From the NCBI GenBank assembly GCA_963826115.1, contig CAWGVS010000005.1, positions 1,056,001 to 1,120,000 on the forward strand: a stretch of 64,000 nt of DNA, written 5' to 3'. Positions 10,847 to 54,595 of the stretch are shown one piece after another. This DNA is from an uncultured Candidatus Rokubacteria bacterium (GTDB lineage: Bacteria; Methylomirabilota; Methylomirabilia; Rokubacteriales; DASRDR01). A model generated the notes under the pieces. It was not told where the DNA came from, did no database searches, and saw nothing but the letters and a program-made list of their open reading frames with translations. Position 1 is the first letter of the stretch, and the number at the start of each line of letters is the position of its first letter. The position numbers and the translations under genes were made by a program.

Positions 10847-10884
10847 CCCCGGGCTATGCGTACCCGACGGCGAGACGACCACGC

Positions 10885-13800
10885 TCACTCGCGCAACTGA
10901 TGCAGTACCCTCTTGGCATCATCAAGGTCCGCTAGCGGGATCTCGCCGAACCAAGCGCAGATGGGCGCCAGCAGGTCGCGGGCCTTCAAAGCGTGCCCCT
11001 GATTGCGCCACATCGCGGCCAGGGTTGTAGCGATGCGCAGCTCAAATATGCGAGCCTCCTGTCCCCTGGCCACTGTCAATCCCCTGTGGAGGGCTGCCTC
11101 CGCCTCATCAAGATTCGATGAAGATACCAAGAGCTCAGCCTGCACACGGTATAGCTCGGCCTCCACGGATCGGACCCCAGTTCGCTCGACCATCTCGAGG
11201 AGATTTCCGATCAACGCCAGGCCATCCTCGACGCGGCCAGTTCGCTGGTACGCAGTTGCCAGCATTGCACCGTGGAATGGCAAATTCCACTGAGCTCCAG
11301 CGGCCTTGGCGCCTTCAATTCCGATCTGCAGCAGCGCGATTGCCTCCGCGAACCGACCCTCGAGTGCCATTGCCCATCCGCGATAGGTCGTCGCTTGTGC
11401 CTGCCAAAACTTCAGACTGTGCTCGATCGCAAGGGCATGTAGACGGTCCACATCCTGGACGAGACCTTTATGATCGAGCAAATGGCATTTGGTTCGGCAG
11501 CTTACGCCCAATGCAAATGCGACAGTGTGAGGATCCTGCAGCGAGCGAGCGCGTGTCATCGCCTCTTGCGCGCGTTCCTCAGCTGCCGACACATGGCCCT
11601 GCAGCGCAAGACAGACCGAAAGAAATGCAAGCGCTGCGGTCCTCACGTCCTCTCCAACGATGATAGGTCGGGATTGGGGACCAAGAATCCTGAGGGCCTC
11701 CTCAAAATGCGCGCTTGCGCCCCGAAGATCTCCAACATTAAGTAGACTGTCTCCGAGCGCGCGGTGAGCCATCATTTCGCCAGCCGCATCGCGCCGCCCA
11801 CGCGCAAACGCCAATAGTTCGTTCGCGGCCAATTGTGCCTGACGTACGTCCGCCCTAACGTGGTAGTGGACGAACCGCCCCGCGAGAATCTTTGGGAGTT
11901 GCGACGCGTCCTCCGTGAGTCGTGACAACTCATATGCACGAGCATATGCCGCGCCTGTCTCGCTCGCGCCGTGCCCCTTGGACGCGATACATGCGCCGCC
12001 AAGCGCAACTTGGAACTCTAGTTCTTGGCGCATGCGCGTCATCGTCGAAGGCAGTTGCTGCAGCAGATTGACCCCATTCGTGATATGCTTGACTGCTTCC
12101 GCATACGCCGAGGTGCTGACCGCCCGCTCACCAGCCTTGTGCCAGTAGTCGATGGCCGCATCAGGCAGATCCGCCTCAGCGTAATGGTGCGCCACGATCT
12201 CCGGCTCGATGTCTGCAGTCTCGGGAAAGTGCTCTACGAGCGTGCGGCCAATGAGGCCATGCAATTGCTGGCGACGACTTCGCACCAGACTCGCATAGGC
12301 GGCGTCCTGCACAAGCGCGTGCTTGAACTGATACGTGGCGTCGGGCGGAACGCCACGCTGGAAGATCAGCTCCGCGTGGACGAGTTGCGCCAGGGCGGCA
12401 TTCAGGTCCCTCGCCGGGAGCGCGGCGACAGCGGAGATCAGGGCGTAGGAGAACTCGCGGCCGATGGCGGCGCCGATCTGCGCCACGTCCTTCGCCGATG
12501 CCAGGCGGTCCAATCGTGCGAGGAGCGACGCATGCAGTGTCGAGGGAATGGCGAGCGGCGGCAATGGGCCCGTCAGCTCATAGCGGCCATCGGCTTCACG
12601 CAGCAGGCCACTTTCCAGGACCGTCATCGTCAGCTCTTCGATGAACAGGGGAACGCCGTCCGTGCGCGCCAAGATCTGATCGAGGAGCTCACGGGGCAGC
12701 GACTTACCGGTCACTCCGGCGATCAGCGCCTCGCCCTCGATCTTGTCGAGCCGGGTCAGGCCAATGCTCGATGTGTGCCGATGACTCGGCCAGGGCGGCG
12801 TGAATTCTGGGCGGGCCGTGGCCAGCATCAAGATCCGCGCGCTCTTGATCTGATCGATGGCCAGCGACAACAGCTCCAGCGACGTCGGGTCAATCCAGTG
12901 CAGAGTCCTCGAACACCATCAGCACAGGCCGGTGCGCGGCAAGTTGCTTCAGGTGGGCCAGGAGCGAACCTAGGGTGCGTTCCTTCATGCGCTGAGGCGT
13001 GACCTTCGGCAGGGGGTAGCGGTCGCCGCCAGGGATTGACAGCAGCGCCGCAAACAGCGGCATGTCTTCTGCGGGGTCTTCGCTCGATTGCCTCAGCAAC
13101 GCTTCGAGCTTGTCCAGCTTGGTCTGTGGAGCGTCATCTCGCTCGATACCGGCCGCCCGGATGAGCTGGCCAATGATCGGATACAGAGCACTGTCTTGAT
13201 GGTAGGGCGAGCAGTGGTACAGCAGCCGCGTGTAGGGCTCCGACCTGAGACGCTCCTGCAGGGCCCGCGTCAGCCGCGACTTGCCAATACCCGGTTCACC
13301 GGTCACCAGTACGACGCGCCCTTCCCCTCGCTTGGCCTGCTCCCACCGGCGCCATAGCAGATCGAGCTCCTCATCGCGCCCCAGAAGCCGAGAGCCCATG
13401 GCGGCACGTCGTACCTCGAAGCGGTTCTCGATCTTGCTTGGCTTGATGACCTGGCGCACGAGCAAAGGCTCGCCAAATCCCTTCAGCGTCTGCGAGCCGA
13501 GATCGCGGTATTCGAACAGTGCCCCGACCAACCGATGCGTCTCGGGCGCGATGACGACTGTATTGGGCTCGGCGAGCGACTGCAGGCGGGCCGCGAGGTT
13601 GGTCGTCTCGCCAATCGCGGCGTTCTCCTGCGTCACGCCCTCGCGGCCAAGATCACCGACGACAACCACACCTGAGGCGATGCCGATGCGCGCCTGCAGG
13701 GTCACACCGGGAGCCGCTTGCACGGTTCCCACAGCATCCAGGATTGCGAGCCCGGCCCGCACCGCACGTTCCGCGTCATCCTCGTGCGCAGCGGGATATC

Positions 13801-14218
13801 CGAAGTAGGCGAGCACTCCGTCTCCGAGATACTGCGCGACCATCCCGTCCAGACTCTTGATCTCATTGGCGCAGCAGGTCTGGAATGCACTCACGACATC
13901 GCGCTGCTCCTCGGGATCGAGTCGGGTCGAGAGAGCGCTCGACCCCACCATGTCGCAGAACATGATCGTGAGCTGGCGACGTTCAGCCGAGGAGGCCGGA
14001 GTGACCGGCGCGGTTGGACGCGGGCCTGTCGACGGTGCCATCGCTGGCTTGCTTGGAGCGAGACCAACCCCGCACTCGGAACAGAACCGAGCCTGAGCTG
14101 AATTGGCATGCCCACAGGCAGGGCAAACACGCGGGAGTGGCGAGCCGCAGTGCTCGCAAAACTTGCCGCCTTCTCTCAGGCGTGAGTTACAGGTTGGGCA
14201 CTGCATCGCCGTTCCCAC
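10885..14218 (-). CDS. double zinc ribbon + class III nucleotidyl cyclase + AAA_16 (STAND) + TPR protein; +1 frameshift near 12904
   Basis: CPTC..CEHC..CPAC..CSEC; FCDMVGS, LGDGVL, TNLAARL; GEPGIGKS. Removing one base gives FEDLHWIDPTSLELL and joins ORFs 12890..14218 and 10885..12870. Confidence 0.85.
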
Positions 14219-16316: not shown

Positions 16317-17249
16317 CTACTTCAGCTTGGGGTCCAGGGCGTCCCGGACCCCGTCACCCAGAAACGTGAACGACAGCATCGTGACGCCAATGGCGATGGA
16401 CGGGAACACGCAGAGGTGCCAGTACGTCCGGAGGTACTGCTGTCCCTCCCCCACCATCTGACCCCAGGACGGCGTCGGGGGATTGATACCCACGCCGATG
16501 AACGAAAGCGCGGCCTCCGTGAAGATCGCCTGGGGGATCCCGAACGTGATGGCGACGATGATCGGGGTGAGCGCGCTCGGAAGGATGTGACGCAGCAGCA
16601 CGCGACGGAACCCCCCGCCGAGGGCGCGGGCGCCCTCGACGAACTCCTTCTCCTTGATGGCAAGCACCTGGGCGCGCGTCTGCCGGGCGATGCCGACCCA
16701 CCCGGTGAGGCCGATCGCGATGAAGATGTTGACGAGGCCCGCGCCCAGCATGGACATGACGAGGATCACGAACAGCAGATTGGGAAAAGCGTACATGACG
16801 TCCACGAAGCGCATCAGCACGAGGTCCACGCGGCCCCCCAGGTAGCCGGACAGGGAGCCGATCGGCACGCCGATCAGCACGACGATCAGCTGGGCGCCCA
16901 ACCCGACCAGCATCGACACGCGAGCCCCATAGATGATCCGGGAGAGGAGGTCGCGTCCGACGTGATCGGTGCCGAGCGGGTAGTCGCGCGAGGGCCCTTC
17001 GTTCAGACGGGCGAAGTTCGTCTTCGTGTAGGGCAACGGGGCGAGGACGTCCGCCAGCAGCGCGACGAGGCACAAGATGAGGACGACGATTCCGCCCGCC
17101 ACCGCCAGCCGGTTGCGCAGGAGACGCCGGAAGGCGTCCCGCCAGAGGCTCGACGACTCGGCTCGCGCGAGGCCCGCGGCCCGCGCGGCGTCGAGGACCG
17201 CCCCGGTCCGAAGGCTACTGGTACCGGATGCGGGGGTCGAGAGTGCCAT
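16317..17249 (-). CDS. peptide ABC transporter permease (OppC/DppC-like)
   Basis: LGTDHVGRDLLSRIIYGARVS, EFVEGARALG, PPTPSWG. Confidence 0.9.
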   Translation of the reverse strand: MALSTPASGTSSLRTGAVLDAARAAGLARAESSSLWRDAFRRLLRNRLAVAGGIVVLILCLVALLADVLAPLPYTKTNFARLNEGPSRDYPLGTDHVGRDLLSRIIYGARVSMLVGLGAQLIVVLIGVPIGSLSGYLGGRVDLVLMRFVDVMYAFPNLLFVILVMSMLGAGLVNIFIAIGLTGWVGIARQTRAQVLAIKEKEFVEGARALGGGFRRVLLRHILPSALTPIIVAITFGIPQAIFTEAALSFIGVGINPPTPSWGQMVGEGQQYLRTYWHLCVFPSIAIGVTMLSFTFLGDGVRDALDPKLK

Positions 17250-18145
17250 AGACGAGGTCGACGACGAGGTTCATCGTCGCGAGGAACGCGCCGTACACGA
17301 GAACGACGGCCATGATCATGGGATAGTCGCGGCCGGTCATCGAGAGCACGAAGAACTGTCCCATGCCTGGCACCCGGAAGATGGCCTCCACGAAGAACGA
17401 GCCGGTGCCGACGGCGGCGAACAAGGGGCCCAGGAGCGTCACGATCGGGATCAGCGCGTTCTTCAGAGCGTGCTTGAAGATCACCGGCGGCTCAGCGAGC
17501 CCCTTCGCGCGCGCGGTGAGCGTGAAATCCGACCGGATGACCTCGAGCATGCTGGCGCGCGTGTACCGGGCGACCAGGCCCATGGGGGCCAGCGACAGAG
17601 TGAGTGGTCGGCAGGACCCAGTTGCGGGGTGAGTCCCACCCCCCGGTCGGGAAGAGCGGGATGACGAACGAGAACATCACGATGGCGAAGACGGCCAGGA
17701 CGAAGTTCGGCACGGCCACGCCGAACGTCGCGACGCAGACCGACACGTAGTCCCAGGCCCGGTTCTGGTGCATGGCGGCCAGGATGCCGAGCGCCAGTCC
17801 TCCGACGACAGCCAGGACGAAGGCCATCGTGCCCAGCCAGAGCGAAACGGGGAACGTCTGGGCGATGATCTCGCTGACCGTTCGGGTCTTGTAGACAAAC
17901 GACTGGCCGAAGTCCCCTCGGGCGGCCTTGCCGACGAAGATGAGGAACTGCTGGTAGAGCGGCCGGTCGAGGCCGTAGGCCTTGGCGAGGTTTTTCTGGG
18001 CCTCGGGAGGCAGAGGATTTGCGCCTTCTGCCACGGGATCGAGCGGACTTCCTGGCGTCGCATGCATCACCAGGAAGGTCACGAGCGCCATGGCCAGGAG
18101 CGTCGGGGCCAGCCACAGGACGCGAGACGCCGCGTATTGGAGCAC
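17215..18145 (-). CDS. peptide ABC transporter permease (OppB/DppB-like); +1 frameshift near 17605
   Basis: YGLDRPLYQQF, GDFGQS; removing one base gives WVLPTLTLSLAPMGLVARYTRASM...TARAKGL...RDYPMI. Confidence 0.85.
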
Positions 18146-18303: not shown

Positions 18304-19125
18304 GTGAACGTCACGCTTCTCGGAACCGGATGCCCGCCGCCGAATCCGGCCCGTCGTGGCCCCGCGACCCTCGTTCGCGCCGGCGCGGAGACGCTCCTCG
18401 TGGATGCCGGATCCGGGGTGGCCGTGCAGCTGCTCCGCGCCGGGGTCCGGGCGAGCCAGCTCCAGCGTGTCCTGCTCACCCATTTGCACTCCGACCACGT
18501 CATCGACCTCGGCCATCTCGTGCTGACCCGCTGGATCGTCGGCGAGAACACGCCGCTCGAGGTGTTCGGCCCGGCCGGCACGGCCGCCCACGTGGAGCGG
18601 CTCCTCGCTCTCTGGGCCTGGGACGTCGAGGTCCGGCGCTCGCACATGCGCGAGCGCGAGCCGCCCCGCGTGCGCGTGACGGAGATCGAGGAGGGCCTGG
18701 TGTTCGAGCGGGACGGCGTGCGCGTCACCGCGTTCCTCGTGGAGCACGAGCCCGTGAAACCCGCGTTCGGGTTTCGCTTCGACGCGCCCGGCCGCCGCGT
18801 CGTGATCTCGGGGGACACGCGGCCCTCGGAGAACCTGATCCGGCACGCGCAGCAGGCGGACCTCCTGATCCACGAGTGCACCGACATGACCTTCGCGGCG
18901 TGGACGCCCGGGTGCGGCTGGCCGACGCGAGAGGCGAAGGTGCGCGACCTGCAGGCCTATCACACGGGACCGGACGAGGTCGGCGCGGTTGCAGCCGAGG
19001 CTCGCGCGCGCCATCTGGTGCTCACGCACCTGATGCCGGGCTCCGAGCCCGGTGACCTGATCGATCGAGCCCGCGCGCGCTTCGCCGGTCCGATCACGGT
19101 CGGCGAGGACCTCGCCGCGCTGTAG
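18304..19125 (+). CDS. MBL-fold metallo-hydrolase (RNase Z/BN-like)
   Basis: LLGTGCP, THLHSDH, SGDT, LLIHEC, YHT, LVLTH. Confidence 0.88.
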   Translation: MNVTLLGTGCPPPNPARRGPATLVRAGAETLLVDAGSGVAVQLLRAGVRASQLQRVLLTHLHSDHVIDLGHLVLTRWIVGENTPLEVFGPAGTAAHVERLLALWAWDVEVRRSHMREREPPRVRVTEIEEGLVFERDGVRVTAFLVEHEPVKPAFGFRFDAPGRRVVISGDTRPSENLIRHAQQADLLIHECTDMTFAAWTPGCGWPTREAKVRDLQAYHTGPDEVGAVAAEARARHLVLTHLMPGSEPGDLIDRARARFAGPITVGEDLAAL

Positions 19126-19539
19126 GCGCGGAGGGCCTACGCCGAGCGCTCGCGGTTACGGCGCCTCCGGCCCCTCAGATGTCACGGCCAGCGCTTTGGG
19201 CCCCCCGCGCGCCCGGCCTCCGCCTCCTCGACAAAGACCCGCGCGTCCGCACGTAGGCCGTCCCAGCCACGTTTCTGTATCCCCTCCCCCGTCCCCCGCT
19301 CGCGGGCGCGCGGCATCGGCCGCGCACCCGAACAACAGCGCGGCGCAGCCGCGTCGGAGGGCGAGGGGGTCAGGACGTGAGGCCCGGAACCCGACCGACA
19401 GGTCCCGCGTGCAGAGTGCGTTCGATGAGCTAGGAGGCCGCCTAGCGTCCGACCCGTGCTTCCTGGTAGGGTCAGGCTGGCGTTCCCCTCGGAATGGCAG
19501 CCGCGTCCCACTGGCCTCAGTCGACGGAAGGATTCATCG

Positions 19540-20529
19540 ATGCTCGCCCGGCTCATGGCCGCGACCATCCTCGCCCTGGCCCTCCTCGCCGCGCCGCTCG
19601 CCGTTGCGGCACAGCCGGCGGGGAAAGGCCACCGGATCGGCTTTCTGGGCGTGGGCTCGCGCGAGGGCCGGGCGTTCTTGATTGACGGCTTTCTCCAGGG
19701 GCTGCGCGAGCACGGCTACGTCGAGGGCCGAAACATCTTCATCGAGTACCGCTTCTCCGAGGACCGCAACGATCGGCTGCCCGCGCTCGCGGCGGAACTG
19801 GTCGATCAGAAGGTGGAGCTCATCCTGGCGTCCGGTACCCCGGCGAGCTTTGCGGCCAGGCAGGCCACCCGTACGATTCCGATCGTCATGGGAAGCCTGG
19901 CCGCCAATCCGGTCGAGACCGGCCTCATCGTCAGCCTGGCGCGGCCCGGTGGCAACATCACCGGGATGACGCAGATGGCCGCGCAGCTCGGCGGGAAGCG
20001 GCTGGAGCTGCTCAAGGAGACCGTGCCGGGTCTGTCGCGCGTGGCTGTCTTCTGGAATCCCGACAACCCCGCCTACGGGCCCATCCTGAAAGAGCTCGAG
20101 GCGGCGGCCCCCGTGCTGGGGGTGGAGCTTCGCCGCGTGGAGGTGCGAGTTCCCGAGGATTTCGAGGCCGCCTTTCAGGGCGCGACCAGGCAGCGTGCCG
20201 GGGCGCTGATCGTCCCCAGCGACCCCCTGGTCACCAACCGGCCCCGCACGGTCGCGGACCTGGCGCTCAGATATCGACTGCCAACGATGTTCGAGAACAA
20301 GGAGTTCACGGAAGTCGGGGGCCTCCTGTCTCTCGGGGTTGACCTCGTCGACTCGTACCGGCGCGCCGCGAGCCATGTGGACAAGATCCTGAAGGGGGCC
20401 AAGCCCGGCGACCTGCCGATGGAGCAGCCCACGAAGTTCGACCTGTTCGTCAACCTGAAGACAGCCAAGGCCCTCGGCCTCACGATCCCGCCGTCGGTGC
20501 TCGCGCGGGCGGACGAGATACTTAAGTGA
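19540..20529 (+). CDS. ABC_sub_bind-type substrate-binding protein (orphan, copy 1)
   Basis: GYVEGRNI, SLARPGGNITG, KRLELLKE, DLPMEQPTKFDL, LGLTIPPSVLARADEI. Confidence 0.88.
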   Translation: MLARLMAATILALALLAAPLAVAAQPAGKGHRIGFLGVGSREGRAFLIDGFLQGLREHGYVEGRNIFIEYRFSEDRNDRLPALAAELVDQKVELILASGTPASFAARQATRTIPIVMGSLAANPVETGLIVSLARPGGNITGMTQMAAQLGGKRLELLKETVPGLSRVAVFWNPDNPAYGPILKELEAAAPVLGVELRRVEVRVPEDFEAAFQGATRQRAGALIVPSDPLVTNRPRTVADLALRYRLPTMFENKEFTEVGGLLSLGVDLVDSYRRAASHVDKILKGAKPGDLPMEQPTKFDLFVNLKTAKALGLTIPPSVLARADEILK

Positions 20530-21509
20530 TGGACCGGCGAGCCTTCGTTGCTGGCACCCTGACCCTCCTCGCCGCGCCGCTCGCCACGGAGGCGCAGCCG
20601 GCGGGTAAGGTCTTCCGGATCGGCGTGCTCAGCCCGGGCTTGGCCCAAGGCTCGTTGGTCGAGATGGCGGCCCTCCGGACCGGGCTCGGCGAGGTCGGGT
20701 ACGTCGAGGGCCAGAACATCCGCATCGACTGGCAATTTGCCGAGGGCAGCCCTCAGCGGCTGAACGAGCTCGCGGCCGAGCTCGTCCGTCTCAAGCCTGA
20801 CGTGATCTTCACGATCAACACCCCCGCCGCGGCGGCCGCCAAGAGCGCGACCAGCACGATGCCCATCGTCTTCGTGAGAGTCAGCGATCCCATCGGGGCG
20901 GGGCTGGTCCCGAGCCTGGCGCGGCCGGGAGGGAACGTGACGGGCCTGGCTTCGTTCGTGGCCGAGATGGGCCCGAAACGCCTGGAGCTTCTCAAGCAGG
21001 CCATTCCGCGCCTCTCCCGGGTCGCTGTGCTCTGGAATGCTCCGAGCAAGGGCGCGCAGCTGGTATTCACGGAGCTCAAGGCGGCGGGTCCCCGCCTCGG
21101 CGTGCAGATCCAAGACGCGGGCGTGCGAGACCCGAATGAGCTGGCGGGCGTCTTCGGCGCCGCGGCCGAGGCACGGGCCAGTGCCCTGGTCGTGATCGAT
21201 GACCTGGTGATCGATTCATACCGGACCGAGATCCTGGCCCTGGCCGCGAAGCACCGGCTCGGGGTGGCCTCCATATATCGGGAGTACACGAACGCGGGGG
21301 GTCTCATGGCCTACGGTCCCAGCCTGTCGGATACGTATCGGCGCGCCGCGACCTACGTCGACAGGATTCTCCGCGGCGCCAGGCCGGCCGATCTTCCAGT
21401 CCAGCAACCCGCAAAGTTTGACTTCGTGATCAACCTCAAGACCGCCAAGACCCTCGGCCTGACGATCCCGCCCTCACTGCTCGCGCGGGCGGATGAGGTC
21501 ATTCAGTGA
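20529..21509 (+). CDS. ABC_sub_bind-type substrate-binding protein (orphan, copy 2)
   Basis: MDRRAFV start overlapping the upstream stop; same family motifs; ends IPPSLLARADEVIQ. Confidence 0.88.
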   Translation: MDRRAFVAGTLTLLAAPLATEAQPAGKVFRIGVLSPGLAQGSLVEMAALRTGLGEVGYVEGQNIRIDWQFAEGSPQRLNELAAELVRLKPDVIFTINTPAAAAAKSATSTMPIVFVRVSDPIGAGLVPSLARPGGNVTGLASFVAEMGPKRLELLKQAIPRLSRVAVLWNAPSKGAQLVFTELKAAGPRLGVQIQDAGVRDPNELAGVFGAAAEARASALVVIDDLVIDSYRTEILALAAKHRLGVASIYREYTNAGGLMAYGPSLSDTYRRAATYVDRILRGARPADLPVQQPAKFDFVINLKTAKTLGLTIPPSLLARADEVIQ

Positions 21510-21578
21510 CCAGCAGGGCGCGCTTCTTGCTGGGGCGATCCCATCGCAGCCAGTCTCGCCTGAGTAAGGCATTGTCTC

Positions 21579-22481
21579 GTGGAGCCTGATCGGGCGAGCT
21601 GGACCGCGAGATTGGCCGCCTACGCGCGCGCATATCACTACGCCCACGACTCACGCCGGGTATTCGAGGACTTCCTGGCGGGCGCGCTCATCACGCGAGA
21701 AGACCGGGAGACCATGGACACACAGTGGGCACCCGCGGCGGCCGACTCTCAGCCGAGACGGCCGGGCGGCGCCCACATGCTCGGCAGAGCGCGCTACAAC
21801 GAGGACAAACTCTTCGGCGCGATCGACAAAGGCATCTCACAGTACGTCATCGTCGGCGCTGGCATGGACACCTTCGCGCTACGGCGGCCCGACCTCCAGG
21901 AGCGTCTCCGGATCTTCGAGCTCGATCACCCCGCGACGCAGGCGTTGAAGCGGGACCGGCTGTCTCAGGCCGCCCTGGCTCTACCACCCCACCTCCACTT
22001 CTGCCCGACTGATTTCGAGCGCGAGAGCGTCGGATCCTCACTGTCCCGATCGCCATTCGACCCCGGGGTTCCGACGTTCTTCTCATGGCTGGGCGTCACG
22101 TACTACCTGACGCGCGAGGCGATTCGCAACACGCTCACGTCGATCTCGACCGTGGCAGCGCCGAACAGTGAACTCGTCATGGACTACGCGGATGCGGCCG
22201 CGCTTCTTCCAGACAATCAGTCTCCCCAGATCCGGGACCTCTTCTTGCGACTCCAGAGCGTGGGCGAGCCCCTGATATCCGGTTTCCACCCGTGCACACT
22301 GACTGAAGAGCTCGCAGCGCTCGGGTTCGACCTCTTGGAGGATTTGGACGCCAAGGTGCAAGAAGCACGCTACTTTGCGGGTCGAGTCGATGGGTTCCGT
22401 CCGGTTGAGTTCGCTCACTTGGCGCATGCACGTCGGATCCCGCCTCCGATGCTGGCGCGGGCGGATGAGGTGATCCAGTAG
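21579..22481 (+). CDS. SAM-dependent methyltransferase (LCM/TIGR00027-like) with binding-protein-derived C-terminal tail
   Basis: QYVIVGAGMDTFA, IFELDHPATQ, FSWLGVTYYL; ends IPPPMLARADEVIQ. Confidence 0.85.
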   Translation: MEPDRASWTARLAAYARAYHYAHDSRRVFEDFLAGALITREDRETMDTQWAPAAADSQPRRPGGAHMLGRARYNEDKLFGAIDKGISQYVIVGAGMDTFALRRPDLQERLRIFELDHPATQALKRDRLSQAALALPPHLHFCPTDFERESVGSSLSRSPFDPGVPTFFSWLGVTYYLTREAIRNTLTSISTVAAPNSELVMDYADAAALLPDNQSPQIRDLFLRLQSVGEPLISGFHPCTLTEELAALGFDLLEDLDAKVQEARYFAGRVDGFRPVEFAHLAHARRIPPPMLARADEVIQ

Positions 22482-23474
22482 GTGGACCGGCGCGCCTTCC
22501 TCGCCGGCTCCCTGGGCGCCCTCGCCGCGCCGGTCGCCGCGGGGGCGCAGCAGGCAGACCGCATTTGGCGGGTCGGCCTCCTCATTCCGTTCGCCGAGAG
22601 CGACGCGGAAGCGCAGACCCAGGTTGCAGCGTTCCTGGGGGCCCTGCGGACACTTGGTTGGGACGAAGGTCGAAATGTGCGCATCGATTATCGTTGGGCT
22701 GCGCGGGATACCACTCGTATTCGGGCATCTGCGAAGGAGCTGGTGGAGCTTCGGCCCGACGTGATTCTCGCCCGCACCACCCCAGTGACCGCCGCACTCC
22801 AAAGAGAGACCAGCACCATCCCGATAGTCTTCGTTGTCGTCTCTGATCCCGTTGGCGACGGCCTCGTCGCGACTGTCGCGCGTCCTGGTGGCAACATCAC
22901 GGGATTCACCAATGTGGATGCTTCGCTAGGCGGCAAATGGCTGCAGTTGCTCAAGGAGATCGCACCTCGCATCAAGAAGATCGCGTTCCTTTTCGATCCC
23001 AGGATGGCCCCCGGTGGGGGAGTGTATTACCGTCGTCTGATCGAGGACGCTGCTCCATCCATCGGGGTACAGGCGATCGAGACCGCGGTGCATGACGCCG
23101 CGGATATCAAGCGCGCCATCGAGGGGTTCGTGCGGGAACCGAACGGTGGTCTTGTTGTGCTACCCGATGTGACGACCATTAATCACCGCAGGACGACGAT
23201 TTCGCTGGCGGCCAACCATCGCCTGCCGGCCATCTATCCGACCGACTACTTCACGAAGGATGGCGGTCTAATATCCTACGGAGCCGACTATCTGGACTTG
23301 TATAGAAAGTCAGCGTCATATGTGGATCGCATCCTTCGCGGTGCGAAGCCGATTGACCTTCCAGTGCAGGGACCGATCAAGTTCCAGTTAACCGTCAACC
23401 TGAAGACCGCCAAAGCGCTCGGCCTCACGATCCCGCCCGCGGTGCTCGCACGGGCAGATGAAGTGATTCAGTGA
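22482..23474 (+). CDS. ABC_sub_bind-type substrate-binding protein (orphan, copy 3)
   Basis: MDRRAFLAG; ARPGGNITGF; ends IPPAVLARADEVIQ. Confidence 0.88.
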   Translation: MDRRAFLAGSLGALAAPVAAGAQQADRIWRVGLLIPFAESDAEAQTQVAAFLGALRTLGWDEGRNVRIDYRWAARDTTRIRASAKELVELRPDVILARTTPVTAALQRETSTIPIVFVVVSDPVGDGLVATVARPGGNITGFTNVDASLGGKWLQLLKEIAPRIKKIAFLFDPRMAPGGGVYYRRLIEDAAPSIGVQAIETAVHDAADIKRAIEGFVREPNGGLVVLPDVTTINHRRTTISLAANHRLPAIYPTDYFTKDGGLISYGADYLDLYRKSASYVDRILRGAKPIDLPVQGPIKFQLTVNLKTAKALGLTIPPAVLARADEVIQ

Positions 23475-23564
23475 CGCGCCCACGCACGCGACCGGAAAGG
23501 GCCGGCAGCGCCCCTTGACGCCCCCGCCCCGACCCCAAGGGGGGGGCGGCCTCTCCTGGGTGTC

Positions 23565-23798
23565 CTGACTGCAGCCGGCGTCCGCTACCGGGAGCCCGAG
23601 CGACTCCGGCACACGTTCGCCAGCACGATGCTGTCGCGTAATGCCCCGCTGCTCTACGTGCAGAAGCAGGGTGGCTGGCGAAGCGCGGCCGTGCTCCTGC
23701 GCGTCTACAGCCGCTGGCTCCCCCCGGATATCGACGGGGGGTCGATGCAACCGTCCGCAACCCCCGCGCAACCGGCCGTGGTCGCGCCGCGGAAGTAG
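23565..23798 (+). pseudogene. tyrosine integrase C-terminal remnant
   Basis: Manual translation LTAAGVRYREPERLRHTFASTMLSRNAPLLYVQKQGGWRSAAVLLRVYSRW...* contains the LRH box, GW and the catalytic Tyr; no N-terminal part. Confidence 0.75.
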
Positions 23799-23805
23799 CG
23801 GGAAT

Positions 23806-23842
23806 CTATGACCCGCCGAGCAGCGGGCGAAACTTCCAGAAG
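23806..23842 (-). repeat. left attachment site: displaced copy of the 3' end of gene 29877..31295
   Basis: Encodes FWKFRPLLGGS*; 23811-23842 matches 29879-29910 at 28/32 nt, with an identical 12-bp core AACTTCCAGAAG. Confidence 0.8.
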
Positions 23843-24059
23843 CACTTGGCCCCCACGCGCGTGCTCGAAAATCCGGCACGTTACAAGACAGCGGCCCGAA
23901 ATCTATCCCCTGGCAACATAACCACACGCGGCCTCGACCTGCGTACGTCACGACTTGCGCGACACCACCGTGAGCTCCCATTAACGCCGGGTCAGCTGGA
24001 CGCATTCCAGCGGCCCGGCGACAGGTCTCCCAGTACCACCGTGCTATCCTAGCGACACA

Positions 24060-24293
24060 ATGACCTCATCAGCTGAACACACCAATCTGCCTGAAGTGAT
24101 CTTCCTCGTCGAGGAAGCCCCCGAGGGCGGTTTCACCGCACGGGCCCTGGGAGAATCAATCTTCACCGAGGCCAACGACATGGAAGACCTCCATGCGAAG
24201 GTCCGAGACGCGGTTCACTGTCACTTCGACGAGGGCAAGACTCCGAAGGTCATCCGGCTCCATTTCGTCCGTGAGGAAGTCATCAAGGCTTGA
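24060..24293 (+). CDS. HicB-like antitoxin (short, no DNA-binding domain)
   Basis: EVIFLVEEAPEGGFTARALGESIFTEA...VRDAVHCHF; stop overlaps the hicA start. Confidence 0.75.
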   Translation: MTSSAEHTNLPEVIFLVEEAPEGGFTARALGESIFTEANDMEDLHAKVRDAVHCHFDEGKTPKVIRLHFVREEVIKA

Positions 24294-24535
24294 GGCTGCC
24301 GCGGGACGTCTCTGGGGAGGATCTCGCGAAGGCACTCGGTGATCTCGGCTACCGGATCACTCGCCAATCCGGTAGCCATCTCAGACTGACCACGCTCGAA
24401 CGCGGCGAGCACCACGTCACCATCCCTCGCCACGCTGCGCTCCGGGTTGGGACACTGTCCGGTCTCCTCGGCGACGTGGCCCAGCATTTCGCCCTGAGCC
24501 GAGAGGAGCTGATCGAGCGGTTGTTTGGGCGATAG
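24290..24535 (+). CDS. hicA: HicA family toxin
   Basis: LPRDVSGEDLAKAL..LGYRITRQSGSHLRL...VTIPRH..LRVGTL; TTG start. Confidence 0.85.
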   Translation: MRLPRDVSGEDLAKALGDLGYRITRQSGSHLRLTTLERGEHHVTIPRHAALRVGTLSGLLGDVAQHFALSREELIERLFGR

Positions 24536-24580
24536 ACGACCAGGAGCGAGGTCGGCTGAAGTCCCGACACTGCGCATTCG

Positions 24581-27500
24581 TCAGCCACGCTCCGTCAGCG
24601 CCGCCTCCGCCTGCGCCAGCCAGAAGCCCATCTCCATCTCTCGATACATATTCGTGGCCGCGGTCAGGTGCTCGTGGGCCTTCGGACGATCACCGGTGCG
24701 GCGATAGAGTTTGCCGAGGCCGAGGTGGCAGTGGGCGACGAGGGGGCGCATGCCGCGCGGCTCGGCGAGCTCCAGCGCCCGGCGGTAGTGGGCCTCGCCG
24801 CTGTCGGCGTCCAACCGGTCGGGATGGGTCGCGATGTCGCCGAGCAGGTGCCGCGCGTCAGCCGCGAACCCGTGCTGCCCCGGAGAGGATTCGACCGCGC
24901 GGTCGGCCAGGCGCTGCGCTTCGTCGAGCCGGCCGAGCAGCAGACCGGCGCGACCCAGCGAGTGGTAGTCCCAACTGCGATAGGCGATGAACCCCCTTGC
25001 CGCCTGACGTTCGAGAAGCCGCTCGCCCTCCCGGAGCCGGTCCAGCGCCTCACTCGCTTCGCCAAGCTGCGCCAATGCCCAGGCGGAGGAGGCGACCGCG
25101 GTGGGAAGCTGAAAGACGACGTTTCGCGGCCGCACCACCGCAATCCACTGCTCGATCAGTGTCCGCGCGTTCGGCCAGTCGCCCTTGAGGAGGCGAAGCG
25201 TGCCCGCGGCGAGGTGGGCCCAGCCGACGGTGTGCGCGTGCTGTGTCGGCTCGGCAAGCCGGATCGCGTCGGCTTCATACGTGGCCGCCTCGATGAACCG
25301 GCCAAGTTGGGCGAGGCTCATGGCCAGGTAGGAGCGGTCGAGGACCGATGGCGGGACGGCCAGGCCGAAATACTCGGAGGCCAAGTCGGCCGGCAGCGCC
25401 GCGAGGTTGCCCGTCGCCAGCTCGACCACTCGCTCGTACTCGCCCCGGTAGTAATGCCCTTCAACGAGACAGCTCGTGGCGAGAATTCGGAGCCTCACAT
25501 CCCCGAGACGCCCGGCGATCGCCAGCGCGCGAGTGCCGGTCACGAGCGCGTCGTCCAATTCGCCGAGATCGTTCAGGGCCATCGTCACGAACGCGCCGGC
25601 GCGGCCTCGCCGGCGGTCATCGTTCAACCGTTCGGCGAGGGCCTCGGCTTCGCGCAAGCGGTCCCGCACTCGCTGGACTTCACCGAGTTGGTTCAGCACT
25701 GGCCGCAGTTCGAGGCGGATCTCGAAGCTCTGCTCCAGCATGGACGGGCTCTCCGGCAGCGCCTCGAGGACCCCCAGCGCCTGCTCGAACCAGACCCGAG
25801 CATCCGAGAGCGCCGATCGCGCGGCCGCCTTGAGCCCGGCCTGCCGGGTATAGTCCACCGCCTTCTCCCGCAACTCACCCCGGACCGCGTGATGAGCGAG
25901 CCGCTCGATCTCTGCGCCAAGGCGGTCTTGGTGGAGCGTCTCGATTGCTTCGACGATCCGCGCGTGCAGCTCGCGGCGCCGCTCCTGCAGCAAGCCGCCG
26001 TACGCGACCTCGTGCGTGAGCGCGTGCCGGAACGTGTACTCGAGATCCGGGAACAGCCGCGTCTCGTAGAGGAATTCGGTCGCCTGAAGCTGGGCGAGCC
26101 CCTGGCGGAGACGGTCCTCGGGCTCGTCGGCCACAGCCTGGAGCAGCGAGAAGGGAACGTCGGTGCCGATCACCGCGGCCGCCTGCAGCAGTCGTTTGTC
26201 CTCCGGGTCCAGTCGGTCGATCCGGGCCGCCAGCATCGCCTGGGCCGTGGCCGGGACCCGGAGGCCTTGGACGATCCGGGTCACGCGATATGCTCCACGC
26301 TCCCCCGCCAGGACTCCCGTCTCGACCAGCGATCGAACGCTCTCCTCCACGAAGAACGGGTTGCCCTCGGTCCGCTCGATCACGAGCCGCTTGAGCGGGG
26401 CGAGCGCGGTGTCGTTCCCGAGCAGGGCGTCGAGCAAGGCCTCGGCGCTCTCGGGCGCCAGGGGATTGATCTGGAGCTGCCGGTAGTAGGTCTTGCTCCC
26501 CCAGCCGTGGCGGTACTCCGGGCGGTAGTTTACGAGGAGGAGCAGCCTGGCCGTGGGCAGGCTCTCCACCAGGCTGTCCAAGAAGGCCTGAGTCTCGGCG
26601 TCGATCCAGTGCAAGTCCTCGAACAGGACCACGAGCGGCTGCACCTGGCTCTCGCGCAGGAGCAGACGCTTGACGCCGTCAAGGATACGCTGGCGGCGCT
26701 GGGGCGGATCGAGGCGTGCCCAGTGCTCGTCCTCGATCGGGACGTCAAGCAGCCACAGAATCGGGAAGACGCAGGGCTCAAGCTGCCGGTCGAGAGAGAG
26801 GAGCCTGCCCGTCACCTTCTCGCCGATCTTGCGGGCATCGTCGGTGCTCTCGATCTGGAAGTACGCTCGGAGCAGCTCGATGAGGGGCAGGTAGTTCGTC
26901 GCCTTGCCGTAGGAGACGGAGCCGGACTCGAGGATCAGCCAGCCCTCGGCGCGATCGGAGTGACTGAACTCCCAAAAGAGCCGGGACTTCCCGACACCGG
27001 GCTCCCCCACGAGGGCCACCACCTGTCCGTGACCGGCTCGCGCGCGCTCGAGCGCCTGGCGGAGCTGATCCAGCTCGCTCTCTCGGCCCACGAATTGGGC
27101 CAGGCCGCGGACGGCCGCGGCCTGGAAGCGCGAGCGGACCGTGGCGGCCCGGGTCAGTTCGTAGACCTCGAGCAACATCTCCAGCCCCTTGACCCGCACC
27201 GGGCCGAGCGATTTGACCTCGACGTAGCCTTCGGCCAGCGCCAGCGTCTCGGGCGTGATCACGATCGCGCCGGGGTCGGCGAGCTGCTCCATCCGCGCGG
27301 CCAGGTGCGTCGTCTGGCCGACGGCGGTGTAGTCCATACGGAGATCGCTGCCTATGGCGCGGACGACGACCTCGCCTGAGTTCAGCCCGACGCGGATCTT
27401 GACGACGGCCGCATGAGAGCGCCGCACCTCGTCCGCGTACGTCTTCACGCGCTCCTGCATCCTGAGTGCCGCGTAGCATGCCCGCACCGCATGGTCCTCG

Positions 27501-27949
27501 TGGGCCAGCGGCGCACCGAACAGCGCCATGATCCCGTCGCCCATCACCTGGTTGACGGTGCCCTCGTAGCGGTGGACGGCCTCCATCATCCGCTCGAGCA
27601 CGGGATCCAGGAGCTTCCGTGCCTCCTCGGGGTCGCGGTCGGCGAGCAATTCCATCGAGCCCTTTAGATCGCCGAAGAGCACCGTCACCTGCTTCCGCTC
27701 GCCTTCGAGGGCACTCTTCGAGGTGAGGATCTTCTCGGCGAGGTGCTTCGGGGTGTAGGCCCCTGGTGAGCTGAAACGTGGCTGCGTCGAGGCCAGCTCG
27801 GCCAGCGGATGGGCGCACTCGGAGCAGAACTTCGCGGTCGGGGACGCCTGGGCGCCGCAATTCGCGCAGGTTCGGGCGAGAGGAGCGGCACATTCCTCGC
27901 AGAACTTCGCCTGCGGGCGATTCTCATGCTGGCACCGGGAGCATTTCAT
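24581..27949 (-). CDS. double zinc ribbon + class III nucleotidyl cyclase + AAA_16 (STAND) + TPR protein
   Basis: MKCSRCQHEN..CEEC..CANC..CSEC; FGDLKGS, MGDGIM, THLAARM; GEPGVGKS; FEDLHWID; GNPFF; TPR-like C-terminus. Confidence 0.9.
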   Translation of the reverse strand: MKCSRCQHENRPQAKFCEECAAPLARTCANCGAQASPTAKFCSECAHPLAELASTQPRFSSPGAYTPKHLAEKILTSKSALEGERKQVTVLFGDLKGSMELLADRDPEEARKLLDPVLERMMEAVHRYEGTVNQVMGDGIMALFGAPLAHEDHAVRACYAALRMQERVKTYADEVRRSHAAVVKIRVGLNSGEVVVRAIGSDLRMDYTAVGQTTHLAARMEQLADPGAIVITPETLALAEGYVEVKSLGPVRVKGLEMLLEVYELTRAATVRSRFQAAAVRGLAQFVGRESELDQLRQALERARAGHGQVVALVGEPGVGKSRLFWEFSHSDRAEGWLILESGSVSYGKATNYLPLIELLRAYFQIESTDDARKIGEKVTGRLLSLDRQLEPCVFPILWLLDVPIEDEHWARLDPPQRRQRILDGVKRLLLRESQVQPLVVLFEDLHWIDAETQAFLDSLVESLPTARLLLLVNYRPEYRHGWGSKTYYRQLQINPLAPESAEALLDALLGNDTALAPLKRLVIERTEGNPFFVEESVRSLVETGVLAGERGAYRVTRIVQGLRVPATAQAMLAARIDRLDPEDKRLLQAAAVIGTDVPFSLLQAVADEPEDRLRQGLAQLQATEFLYETRLFPDLEYTFRHALTHEVAYGGLLQERRRELHARIVEAIETLHQDRLGAEIERLAHHAVRGELREKAVDYTRQAGLKAAARSALSDARVWFEQALGVLEALPESPSMLEQSFEIRLELRPVLNQLGEVQRVRDRLREAEALAERLNDDRRRGRAGAFVTMALNDLGELDDALVTGTRALAIAGRLGDVRLRILATSCLVEGHYYRGEYERVVELATGNLAALPADLASEYFGLAVPPSVLDRSYLAMSLAQLGRFIEAATYEADAIRLAEPTQHAHTVGWAHLAAGTLRLLKGDWPNARTLIEQWIAVVRPRNVVFQLPTAVASSAWALAQLGEASEALDRLREGERLLERQAARGFIAYRSWDYHSLGRAGLLLGRLDEAQRLADRAVESSPGQHGFAADARHLLGDIATHPDRLDADSGEAHYRRALELAEPRGMRPLVAHCHLGLGKLYRRTGDRPKAHEHLTAATNMYREMEMGFWLAQAEAALTERG

Positions 27950-28930
27950 GGGCCGGAGCTCCTCGACCGGGCAGCACTGCAAGCAGCAGAAGGCGGGGCT
28001 CCCGCTCCTTGCGGCAGGAGCTGATGACTGGAGCCAGAGAAGAACGCGGGAAGTCTGCAGCGCAAGATTAAGGAAGAGGGCCGTGTGCGAGCTAAGTCCC
28101 CGAATCCAGAAACGACCGAACGGCCCTCGCATGCATTCGTTGCCCAGTGCCTATCCAAGCCTGAGGGCCGTCGGAGGGCTGTAGTCGAAGAAGACGCCCC
28201 CGCACATCTCCTATGGCCAGGCGCCCAAACCTGTTGGCGGTCTCGACGGGCCAGGGGCAGTATCCGCGCGCATCGGATTCGACCAGGGTCTGCAGTGGCT
28301 ACGATGTTTCGGCGGGCCGACGGCAGAAGTATGGCCAGTCCGGAAGGTGGAACCTCGGCGAAAGAGACTTGATGCGACGCACGGCAAGATAAAGGCCGGG
28401 GCCTGATCCGCCTCAAGTCCGCGAATCTATGCACCATCGGAAGGCCCCGAAGCCGTTCGAGGGCGCGCCCTGTTTCGAGTGTCGGGGCCGCTCGGGGGCC
28501 GCGCTCACGGCCTAGAATCGCGTGGCGCCGAATGGCTCCATCGGCCTCGCTCGTGTGCTGCGACCTCCGCACTGCCCACACCATCGAGCCATAGCCGACC
28601 CTGTCGGCACAGGCTCTTGGCCGATGTCGCGAGAGGGTCTCGCCGAACCGCTTCACTTTGCGTCGCACCGCTGCACCTTGCCGCAGTCCGGCACCCCACC
28701 GAGGATCGTATCGACGGCGCGCTCCCCTCGCCAATCGCCGACTTGGCGCGAGGTTCGGGCACTCGCGACCGCCAAACCCACAACCTAGCATGCCTATTGG
28801 TAGCACGACCCGTACCGATATGAGTTCCGACCTGATCGCGTCCCCGGTGCCCCAGATCTCCCTTGCCTCGCGGCGGCGGCTTCGCTACCGTGCGAGGCAG
28901 CGTGGGGCTGGGCCGCGTCGGGGACATCCC

Positions 28931-53364: not shown

Positions 53365-53597
53365 GCCAACACCCTCCCCATTCGGCCACATGTGTCCGAT
53401 CATACCTCAAACCGAGGCGCCACTGGAGCGCGGAACCGGCGCCCCGCTCGGCCCGGACGGGATAGGATGCCAGGACGGGCCCGGGAGGTCGGCCGGGCCG
53501 CGGGACATCGTCGCGGCGGTGCATGCAGAGCCGCAACCCGCCCCTGGAGCGGATGAGATTGGACGACCCGCTGCACCGGAAAGCCAGCCGCTTTGCG

Positions 53598-54595
53598 ATG
53601 GTGGGCTCGGGACGAGCCTGGCTCGCGTCCTTCGCTGCCTTCGTCCTGGCCTCCTTACCCACAGCGCCGCCGACCTCCGCCCAGCCCGGAAAGGTCTACA
53701 CGGTCGGCCTCGTGACCTCGGGAACTCGGGATCAAGCCGCGCCGTTTCTGAGCGCGCTCGAGGGCGCTCTGGAGAAGCTGGGCTACGTGGAAGGGCAGAA
53801 CCTCGCCTCGAGTATCGGTTCACGGGCGGGAACAGCGAGCGGCTCGCCGAGCTGATGGCCGAGCTCGTCCGCCTGAACGTGGACGCCATCGTCGCCGGCA
53901 GCAACCAGACGGTGGCCGTCGCGAGACGGGCGACCGGCTCCATCCCCATCGTGATGGCCCTCGCGGCCGATCCCGTGGGCGCCGGCTTCGTGGCGAGCCT
54001 CGCACGGCCCGGAGGGAACGTGACGGGGCTCTCCGTCGACGTCAGCCCCGACATCGCGGGCAAGCGCCTGGCCCTGCTGAAGGAGATCGTGCCCACCGTA
54101 TCCCGCGTCGCGGTTCTGTGGGAACCCGCCTCGCCCGAATCGTCCGCGTACTGGCAGGCCGCGCAGCGGGCGGCCGTCCCTCTCCAGCTCGGTCTCGCCT
54201 CGTTCGAGATCAGGCGGCCGGGCGACGTCGACGCCGCGCTGGAAAGTGTCGGCCGCGACGGTGCGAACGGTCTCTCGGTTTTCTTGTCATCCCTGACGTT
54301 GCGGCACGTGTCCAGCGTGACGGCCTTCGCGCTCCGCCGTCGGATCCCGGCCATCTACGGCAACCGGGCCTTCGCCGAGGGCGGCGGTTTGATCTCCTAC
54401 GGCCCCGACCTGACGGACTCTTATCGCCGCACCGCGACCTACCTCGACAAGATCTTCCGTGGAAGCACGCCGGCCCAGTTGCCTGTGGAGCAGCCCACGC
54501 GCTTTGAGCTCGTGCTCAACCTCAGGACGGCCAGGGCGCTGGGCCTGACGATTCCGCCCGCGGTGCGGGCCAGGGCCGACGTGGTCATCGAGTAG
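53598..54595 (+). CDS. ABC_sub_bind-type substrate-binding protein (orphan, copy 4); -1 indel near 53807
   Basis: GYVEGQNLA/LEYRF junction across frames; SLARPGGNVTG; ends IPPAVRARADVVIE. Confidence 0.8.

Follow-up and report, generated by a model that had tools for sequence, protein, structure and literature searches.

Gene content and setting of the array

The window, a 64,000-base stretch of DNA, belongs to a 2.1-Mb contig (C5) in the 6.24-Mb metagenome-assembled genome of a soil Rokubacteria bacterium, with a contamination estimate of 5.3%. Three orphan binding-protein genes of the PF04392 (ABC_sub_bind) family, SBP1 to SBP3, and one methyltransferase gene of the TIGR00027/LCM type, MT, lie head to tail on the + strand. 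The window's own genome is designated G000. The comparison genomes G001, G003, G004, G008, G012, and G013 are from the same genus, L025 is a metagenome locus, and P-numbers denote MT protein homologues. The features of the locus are as follows.

~9460-29900, no strand: variable island that holds the array; its flanks are syntenic in G004, G008, and G013
19540-20529, + strand: SBP1, orphan PF04392 gene (Pfam E 6.9e-50), ending in IPPSVLARADEILK and a stop; tail at 20485-20529
20526-21509, + strand: SBP2, starting at GTG 20526 or ATG 20529 and overlapping the SBP1 stop (Pfam E 7.1e-53); tail at 21465-21509
21510-21578, + strand: spacer of 69 bases that includes a "decayed start-like" stretch; orthologous in G013
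21579-22481, + strand: MT; its core, 21579-22436 (286 codons), encodes an LCM/TIGR00027 SAM-dependent methyltransferase
22437-22481, + strand: SBP-derived tail of MT, IPPPMLARADEVIQ and a stop, which gives the MT frame its last 14 codons and stop codon
22437-22460, + strand: 24-base segment present in G000 and missing from the short-tailed relatives (junction alignment of G013, G000, and G008; L025 sequence)
22467-22476, + strand: 16S complement, 10 bases that match the 16S rRNA 3' end perfectly
22482-23474, + strand: SBP3 (Pfam E 1.1e-46); tail at 23430-23474
23574-23711, + strand: C-terminal piece of 46 residues from a tyrosine recombinase, PF00589

The distance between the flanks of the island is 4 kb in G004 and 10-11 kb in G008 and G013. 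SBP1 to SBP3 match PF04392 with 160-180 bits (cut-off 25.9), and since the alignments reach position 292 or 293 of the 293 in the model, the tail lies within the SBP domain. MT matches PF04072 with an E value of 2.9e-44 and 151.6 bits (cut-off 22.3), and TIGR00027 with 161.4 bits (cut-off 93.55) over residues 8-266, which align to profile positions 2-257 of 259. The tail of MT (residues 287-300) falls outside both models. As read from the translations, SBP2 begins with MDRRAF(VAG) and SBP3 with VDRRAFLAG, twin-arginine-type starts that form a putative Tat signal. The three SBPs score 134-151 bits against the TrpX model, below its cut-off of 390.

The three tandem genes had been predicted to lack a permease of their own, and this is borne out. 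The nearest PF02653 permease is ~30 kb away (C5:1043281-1045020), and the Opp-type PF00528 permeases 1.4-3.2 kb upstream of the array are on the opposite strand. Searches for both families found no adjacent co-oriented permease, and on this count the SBPs do not belong to a complete ABC importer. Inside the array there are no promoter-like sites and no terminator-like sites on the + strand, and we therefore read it as one transcription unit. The array is a run of orphan periplasmic SBP genes, all in one orientation and probably co-transcribed, in a mosaic accessory island. No Rfam family matches within 19000-24600. In the literature open to full-text search for Rokubacteria binding proteins and PF04392, no paper on such arrays was found.

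The methyltransferase tail and its breakpoint

Each of the four genes ends in a 45-base tail, as originally predicted, at the coordinates listed above. The MT and SBP2 tails are identical at 36/45 bases, in agreement with the earlier count, and the remaining pairs among the four are identical at 33-38/45. MT also directly abuts the next gene, as had been proposed: its TAG stop at 22479-22481 is followed by GTG at 22482, the start of SBP3. The 16S complement, defined against the 16S 3' end read in the same genome, ends 5 bases before this GTG, and its position makes it a probable ribosome-binding site for SBP3. The MT tail has probably been kept for this sequence rather than for any service to the methyltransferase.

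When the tail peptide pattern was searched in all six frames of the 6.24-Mb genome, 16 matches were found, each with its end 1-2 residues short of a stop codon. Twelve of them close frames with at least 314 upstream codons, one belongs to MT, and the other three to SBP pieces that are short or broken. The tail is therefore found away from full-length SBPs, as the original prediction anticipated, but MT is the only unrelated gene that runs into it in frame without a stop.

The expectation that MT homologues lack the tail was also correct. Among the 35 closest homologues (at least 62% identity), the full in-frame tail occurs only in the window's own protein, and 13 of the 35 end in HARL, HARLE, or HARLQ. 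HARL is the end seen in the more distant homologues, at 65-70% identity. An MT paralogue in the same genome ends in MMRATV. When 120 listed homologues are considered, the tail motif is present in 2, and the second of these is frameshifted. The close MT relatives from G013, L025, P0002, and P0004 have a shorter, SBP-like end, RAD(V/G)IIE or RAGVIIE, directly followed by the stop. In G013 and L025 the MT stop overlaps an ATG, after which an N-terminal SBP remnant is recognized by the profile (iE 5e-5 and 3e-4, respectively). An SBP-like end together with the remnant of an SBP start in close relatives indicates that MT has long been situated beside SBP junction sequence.

The position 22436/22437 is a double homology breakpoint. 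On its left side, window positions 21280-22436 match the MT locus of G013 with 89.6% DNA identity, and the match stops exactly at 22436. On its right side, homology to the tail of the G008 gene SBPx and to SBP3 starts at 22436, with 95.2% identity. The counterpart of the MT tail in G008 is the end of the intact SBPx gene, which precedes SBP3 there. The two flanks share 1-3 bases at the joint, and the CGG at 22434-22436 recurs as the last three bases (22458-22460) of the 24-base segment in G000. By these alignments, the tail of MT derives from an SBP and is foreign to the enzyme gene, and the breakpoint is located exactly at 22436/7. The tail is 40/45 identical to several SBP tails, that of SBPx in G008 among them. 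A donor could not be named from the tail alone, since a 40/45 match is reached by at least five different tails.

An artefact would be a trivial source of such a joint, as the sequence was assembled from a metagenome with many SBP paralogues and an estimated contamination of 5.3%, and among the public contig pieces listed none bridges 22436/7. None of the 22 public read runs listed contained half of the sampled words, and the four that were assembled gave short, low-depth contigs that provide no check of the junction. One public run contained a joint that "skips 993"; it was rejected, as it links two tails across 21 foreign letters and derives from other SBP genes. Against an assembly chimera, no repeat lies to the left of the joint that could mislead an assembler, the reading frame is kept, the stop and the next start are intact, and the contig extends over 2.1 Mb. 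Independent assemblies also contain MT joined to SBP tail/start sequence in other forms. We regard an assembly chimera as very unlikely.

Three forms of the MT-to-tail junction are found: an out-of-frame form with ~22 tail codons in P0035, the form with 14 codons in G000, and one with 6 in G013 and L025. The existence of three forms points to several events rather than one. In a maximum-likelihood tree, G000 is nested among the short-tailed forms (support 91/84), and the alternative of the short forms as a single clade is not rejected by the AU test (p 0.112). L025 additionally has a deletion of ~55 bases in the region of the 69-base spacer.

Judged by its dN/dS of 0.23 against G013, MT is functional and under purifying selection. 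A close MT is present in 3/251 genomes of the class; the species-genome scan found only the G013 and G008 loci, and the metagenome scan found one close locus, L025. The gene is often damaged: it is truncated or frameshifted in 7 of the 35 closest homologues, the G008 copy is cut by an IS630-like gene, and the L025 copy is frameshifted. That the fused gene in G000 is intact and selected could be taken to mean that the tail does something for the enzyme, for instance as a docking peptide also present in the SBPs. This is highly improbable, because MT is a cytoplasmic enzyme whereas the SBPs are putatively exported, the fusion is confined to G000 among the 120 listed homologues, and the relatives retain only 0-6 tail residues.

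The original prediction further held that MT had replaced the interior of an SBP gene. On the 3' side this agrees with the tail, stop, and next SBP start found in G000, G013, and L025. On the 5' side the proposed decayed start after SBP2 does not rise above chance: compared with six real SBP starts, it scores no better than 3000 random 50-mers from C5 (P 0.48 by best score and 0.28 by mean score). An SBP profile search likewise found nothing in the 50 bases after the SBP2 stop or upstream of the G008 MT copy. The stretch upstream of the G008 copy resembles a signal-peptide remnant by eye, a likeness that was not counted as evidence.

Decay and rearrangement of the binding-protein genes

G000 contains 20 full-length SBP paralogues. 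SBP1 has orthologues with 85-93% identity in G003, G004, G012, and G008, where its neighbours differ. No genus orthologue of SBP2 was found at 85% identity or above, the best match being 78%. SBP3 is 95.2% and 93.5% identical to a G008 gene that is split by an IS630-like insertion, and its dN/dS is 0.29.

SBP remnants are abundant in the genus. A profile search of G000 with relaxed filters revealed ~6 remnants with only the 3' end, compared with one that has only the 5' end. Over all loci compared, remnants extend 14, 20, 22, 25, 47, 58, 67, and ~96 codons before the stop. In G013, G001, and G004, 38/111 matches to the SBP C terminus begin at query residue 11 or later, and 13/111 span only the last 35 residues or fewer. 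Since 3' remnants are this common, chimeric reading frames can be expected to arise as a by-product. Two long frames that end in SBP tails, in G013 and G001, were considered as further fusions and rejected: one is an SBP with a frameshift that follows a TPR gene, and the other is a remnant whose stop is lost.

The gene order varies from genome to genome: it is SBP2-MT-SBP3 in G000 and SBPa-SBPb-MT in G013, and the G008 order is SBPx-SBP3-SBPb-like. Such differences are also expected if the tail-stop-start junction were a short patch of homology at which RecA-type recombination swaps whole genes among arrays and species, with MT as a captured cassette flanked by two tails. Tail sequence does bound the MT block on both sides in G000 and G013, and the SBP neighbours of MT, upstream as well as downstream, are non-orthologous in the two genomes, being different paralogues with ~45% amino acid identity. 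The accessory blocks are 90-95% identical between species, against 78-86% for the core flanks. Across the 20 paralogues, synonymous codon identity amounts to 0.57 in the tail and 0.46 elsewhere in the gene, an excess that covers the last ~30 codons. The SBPb-like gene of G001 retains a 25-residue tail remnant of an earlier, now lost, upstream neighbour. The left edge of the shared block falls within the last ~30 bases of an SBP tail, where 29/30 bases are identical as opposed to at most 26 for 22 other SBPs, a weak signal. The homology-block edges at 22436, ~21480, and ~23467 all lie in tails, although these are few cases and have no control set.

Other observations argue against exchange guided by the tails. 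With 33-40/45 identical bases and short exact runs, the tails offer little homology for RecA, and to the left of the joint at 22436/7 homology is absent. The breakpoints of the remnants are scattered from 14 to ~96 codons before the stop. Where stop and start overlap, any rearrangement that spares the genes has to end at the junction, and selection alone could yield the pattern. On balance, RecA-type swapping at the tails is unlikely. It is also unlikely, though conceivable, that in this genus the ~45-base tail and the overlapping stop/start, with the ribosome-binding site for the following gene and sufficient identity for an occasional homologous exchange, would make up a portable module for recombination and expression, an integrase-free cassette system of coding repeats. 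Were that so, whole genes could move between arrays and species, with the occasional capture of an unrelated gene, MT being one example. If tails do guide recombination, they would provide a simple natural system of gene shuffling without a dedicated recombinase.

The original prediction compared the junction to the capture site of an integron, where a tyrosine recombinase would recognize the tail/start junction in the manner of an attC site and insert promoterless cassettes. The array genes do lie close together in one orientation and apparently lack promoters of their own, and a recombinase fragment is located 100 bases after the array. The predicted integrase remnant therefore exists, but the match is weak: PF00589 aligns over profile positions 121-166 of 172 with an E value of 1.3e-5 and 25.5 bits, under the Pfam cut-off of 27.1. 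Beside the array there is no intact IntI-type recombinase, only this piece of 46 residues. Eight folds, of four junctions on both strands, contained no stable hairpin when compared with shuffled sequences (z -1.2 to +1.7), and Rfam gave no match. The boundaries do not share a crossover point, as both the remnant lengths and the edges of the homology blocks differ. The tail falls within the SBP fold model, and a single unrelated gene carries it in the genome. An integron-like capture site is extremely improbable and the claim is not upheld.

Proposed origin and comparison with known systems

The reading we favour, with a probability of roughly 0.7, is that a rearrangement joined MT to the last 14 codons of a destroyed SBP gene, as a by-product of a fast-decaying family and not through a new gene-capture system. 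MT would be an ordinary gene for a cytoplasmic TIGR00027 enzyme that came to lie within an SBP array. A deletion or an illegitimate (microhomology) join would then have fused MT, after codon 286, to the final 14 codons of the SBP that once preceded SBP3, a gene still intact in G008. MT would thereby have lost its own end and come to stop at the SBP stop codon, directly before the start of SBP3. Three points here are inferred: what kind of event it was, which way the change ran, and why selection kept the tail.

The case illustrates base by base how a large, fast-turning family of paralogues makes chimeric frames. It is also a warning for annotation, as the last 14 residues of MT are borrowed. 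One stretch of DNA has two roles, as the conserved end of an SBP and as a perfect 16S rRNA complement before the next gene, and this dual role may be the reason why remnants outlast their source genes.

Chimeric frames formed by deletion or illegitimate joining resemble the present one in having one exact joint with 1-3 shared bases and a near-complete upstream gene that borrows 14 codons and a stop from a remnant. Here, in contrast, the borrowed piece is from a many-copy family, and relatives contain two more forms of the joint, which implies repeated rearrangement of this neighbourhood. Homology-facilitated illegitimate recombination is known from natural transformation. It would agree with a tail and SBP3 side that is homologous to common recipient sequences and another side without homology; it differs in that no donor or recipient can be named here, and the joint is accounted for just as well by a plain internal deletion.

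Integron arrays (IntI, attI, attC) have in common with this array the packed, co-oriented, promoterless genes, a repeat at each boundary, and a recombinase relic nearby. In the present array the repeat is coding, all but one of the "cassettes" belong to one family, and there is no hairpin, intact integrase, or fixed crossover.

The orphan toxin-immunity arrays of rhs and cdi loci have a conserved coding motif at the junction, and their C-terminal modules are swapped by homologous recombination. As in these arrays, a conserved coding stretch is situated at the gene junctions, and displaced genes retain a fragment of the former upstream gene. The genes here encode binding proteins instead of toxins, and it is the end of the preceding gene that is conserved, where rhs and cdi arrays conserve the start of the swapped module. 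Swapping takes place in the rhs/cdi arrays; in the SBP arrays it is hypothetical. The Bug/TctC proteins are an expanded family of orphan periplasmic binding proteins. Like the family studied here, they are represented by tens of paralogues in a genome, most of which have no permease or ATPase next to them; the difference is that the genes of the present array belong to PF04392.

Gene content of the array

The source genome (G000; 6.24 Mb, 72% G+C, 12 contigs) carries the array on contig C5, where the window spans positions 1056001–1120000. Three PF04392 binding-protein genes (SBP1–3) and one LCM-type methyltransferase gene (MT) lie in tandem.

Features of the array and of its 3′ side
19540–20529, + strand: SBP1, PF04392, E 7e-50
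20526–21509, + strand: SBP2, PF04392, E 7e-53
Between 21509 and 21579: SBP2–MT spacer, 69 bases
21579–22481, + strand: MT, PF04072 and TIGR00027
22482–23474, + strand: SBP3, PF04392, E 1e-46
3′ of the array: tyrosine-recombinase fragment, 46 residues, scoring under the Pfam cut-off
24075–24535, + strand, 3′ of the array: HicA toxin gene, PF07927, E 2.5e-9
24581–28132, − strand, 3′ of the array: cyclase/AAA/TPR gene, 1183 residues

The last 45 bases of each SBP gene, here called the tail, are found at 20485–20529, 21465–21509 and 23430–23474, and a fourth copy closes MT at 22437–22481, as originally noted. The SBP2 and MT tails share 36 of 45 bases, the remaining tail pairs 33–38. Because the PF04392 matches of SBP1–3 run to the last profile positions, the tail is native to the SBP domain. 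The match of MT to TIGR00027 (161 bits; cut-off 93.55) ends at residue 266. Against TrpX, the only named equivalog, SBP1–3 score 134–151 bits, far below the cut-off of 390. MT does abut the next start, its TAG stop being followed immediately by the GTG of SBP3. Inside the array there are no promoter-like sites and no + strand terminator-like sites, and an Rfam search of 19000–24600 gave zero matches.

The SBP genes were correctly described as having no permease of their own nearby: the closest PF02653 permease is ~30 kb away, and the Opp-type permeases 1.4–3.2 kb upstream are on the opposite strand. One of the latter, an OppB-type gene (17215–18145, − strand), is broken up over two frames that overlap (PF00528 positions 1–54 and 66–183), through either a real frameshift or an assembly indel error. 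Elsewhere in the window, a fourth PF04392 gene (53465–54595, + strand) has its N-terminal part in another frame than the rest and ends in IPPAVRARADVVIE.

A 71-residue frame without a Pfam match precedes the HicA gene and could, by its position, be a candidate HicB partner. The 1183-residue protein consists of a zinc ribbon, an adenylate/guanylate cyclase domain, an AAA_16 domain and TPR repeats. Its family is large in these genomes, with dozens of copies, 70–80% identical, in the comparison genomes G004 and G008. Next to the MT and SBP loci of G008 and G013, which are of the same genus as G000, lie copies of its gene or their 3′ ends.

Origin of the methyltransferase tail

Across six frames of the whole G000 genome, the tail peptide pattern occurs 16 times, always 1–2 residues from a stop: 12 matches are at the ends of full-length frames, one is MT, and the other three belong to SBP pieces that are short or broken. 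The other LCM gene of the genome ends in MMRATV. We classed the 35 closest database homologues of MT (≥62% identity) by their C-terminal end. HARL, HARLE or HARLQ closes 13 of them, and (H)A/T-RL with a short unrelated extension another four; eight have HARR followed by ADE, ADVIIE, ADGIIE, THE, TVD or VDDQSK, two end otherwise, and seven are truncated or frameshifted. The full tail is present in a single one, the window's own protein. Among the matches listed, the tail motif is found in 2 of 120 proteins, the second being P0035, a frameshifted MT copy with TAKALGFTIPPAVLARADEVIS after the enzyme end in another frame.

The G013 orthologue of MT is 90% identical over residues 1–287 and ends HARRAGVIIE. 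At DNA level, its locus (L002 1202–2358) matches window 21280–22436 with 89.6% identity, and the homology halts at 22436; the 35 kb around this gene contain no other window match beyond paralogue-level SBP ends. In G008, an intact gene ending TIPPAVLARADEVIQ (SBPx) precedes an SBP3 orthologue that is split by an IS630-like insertion. Here, L016 1455–2200 corresponds to window 22436–23181 (95.2% identity) and L016 3303–3593 to 23177–23467 (93.5%). As the G013 homology ends where the G008 homology begins, 22436/7 joins two blocks of different history. The two flanks have 1–3 bases in common at this joint, which is known from one assembly, with no bridging piece among the public contigs listed (short and low-depth). 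Homologues mostly without the tail and homology blocks meeting at 22436/7 bear out the original prediction that the tail is SBP-derived and show that it is foreign to the enzyme. The MT tail is a fragment of an SBP gene that has been destroyed, and was gained by rearrangement.

The MT stop of G013, like that of the metagenome contig L025, overlaps an ATG (…GAATGATGG…). Next come an SBP N-terminal remnant (profile iE 5e-5 and 3e-4, on the scale of the entire six-frame genome) and, beyond it, an alpha/beta-hydrolase gene. Given this overlap and the start remnant, the six-residue MT end (R)AD/G-VIIE of both seems to be the last part of an SBP tail, and MT had apparently adjoined SBP junction sequence earlier. 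Relative to both, G000 has 24 additional bases (22437–22460), with CGG directly before them and again as their last three bases. This fits a long tail that came first and was shortened by a small deletion running from one CGG repeat to the other. It also fits a short tail that came first and gave way, in G000, to the tail of SBPx through a deletion reaching there from the MT end. In the protein tree, G000 falls within the short forms (support 91/84); a single clade of the short forms is not rejected by an AU test (p 0.112).

SBP2 and the SBP gene upstream of MT in G013 (SBPb) are different paralogues, with paralogue-level identity up to the last 30 bases, of which 29 are identical (≤26 for 22 other SBPs). 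The SBP2–MT spacer is orthologous in G013. L025 retains only ~100 bases of SBP tail upstream of MT and has a ~55-base deletion in the spacer. The G008 copy of MT (72%) has a TPR gene upstream and is truncated by an IS630-like transposase gene (L003 314–1370, contig C81); the one that interrupts the SBP3 orthologue (L016 2200–3303, contig C32) has flanks overlapping by 5 bases. A decayed start had been proposed 3′ of SBP2 and is unproven: 48% (best score) or 28% (mean) of 3000 random 50-mers from C5 match or beat its alignment to six real SBP starts, and the SBP profile is silent there.

Mosaic island and SBP decay

The array is part of a variable segment (~9460–29900) whose flanks are syntenic in G004, G008 and G013, being 4 kb apart in G004 and 10–11 kb apart in the other two. 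Flank identity between these genomes is 78–86%, compared with 90% for the MT block and 95% for the SBP3 block, and segments 10851–13853 and 18425–18957 are 93–95% identical to different G008 contigs (C102 and C95). Being more similar than the flanks, these accessory pieces seem to have been shared at a later time than the core, and the island is a mosaic of such pieces. Across the class, a close MT is limited to 3 of 251 genomes. Purifying selection acts on both MT (G000 against G013; dN/dS 0.23, dS 0.19) and SBP3 (G000 against G008; dN/dS 0.29).

G000 has 20 full-length PF04392 genes, among them two further tandem arrays. It also has one frameshifted full SBP gene and the pieces listed here, including a single 5′ remnant (98 residues).

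Partial SBP genes in G000 (contig coordinates)
C5 26601–26777, − strand, outside the window: 3′ remnant, 58 residues, first codon directly past a GNAT acetyltransferase gene stop
C5 762072–762215, − strand, outside the window: 3′ remnant, 47 residues, first codon directly past an asparaginase gene stop
C12 354849 onward, + strand: 5′ remnant, third gene at the end of the C12 array, only the first ~98 codons left
3′ remnant: 67-residue piece
3′ remnants: a 22-residue tail and a weakly matched one of 20 residues (iE 0.35)
3′ remnant: partial piece, last residues absent

The remnants adjoining the GNAT and asparaginase genes are both in frame with the preceding gene, which could be chance (~1 in 9). 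With the last 74 residues of SBP2 as query, G013, G001 and G004 gave 111 matches, some of them halves of frameshifted genes; in 38 the alignment begins no earlier than residue 11, and 13 extend over no more than the last 35. In G001, only a 25-residue tail remnant lies upstream of an SBPb-like gene, and L025 has another SBP remnant of ~96 residues. Remnant lengths vary, so that breakpoints fall 14 to ~96 codons before the stop. The SBP family is constantly duplicated, broken and reshuffled.

The tail as a proposed ribosome-binding site and the integron analogy

At identical residues, the last 15 codons of the 20 paralogues show a codon identity of 0.57 and the remainder of the gene one of 0.46, against 0.45 and 0.43 expected from codon usage. 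Gene conversion could account for this modest excess, as could a second DNA function. The 16S rRNA of G000 ends in …GGATCACCTCCTTTCT, and 22467–22476 is an exact 10-base complement of this end, covering most of the E-V-I codons and lying 5 bases before the SBP3 start. From this match we infer that the tail is a putative ribosome-binding site of the next gene, which would explain the survival of tail plus next gene as a unit.

The array had been likened to an integron followed by an integrase remnant. A tyrosine-recombinase sequence does follow it, but as a fragment below the Pfam cut-off. Single-strand folding of the four junctions, for both strands, gave no more stability than shuffled sequences (z −1.2 to +1.7). 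No single crossover point common to all breakpoints was found, and only one "cassette" is something other than an SBP gene. A dedicated, integron-like capture system is not supported; in a looser version, of low probability, the tails would provide short stretches of homology that make exchange between arrays easier.
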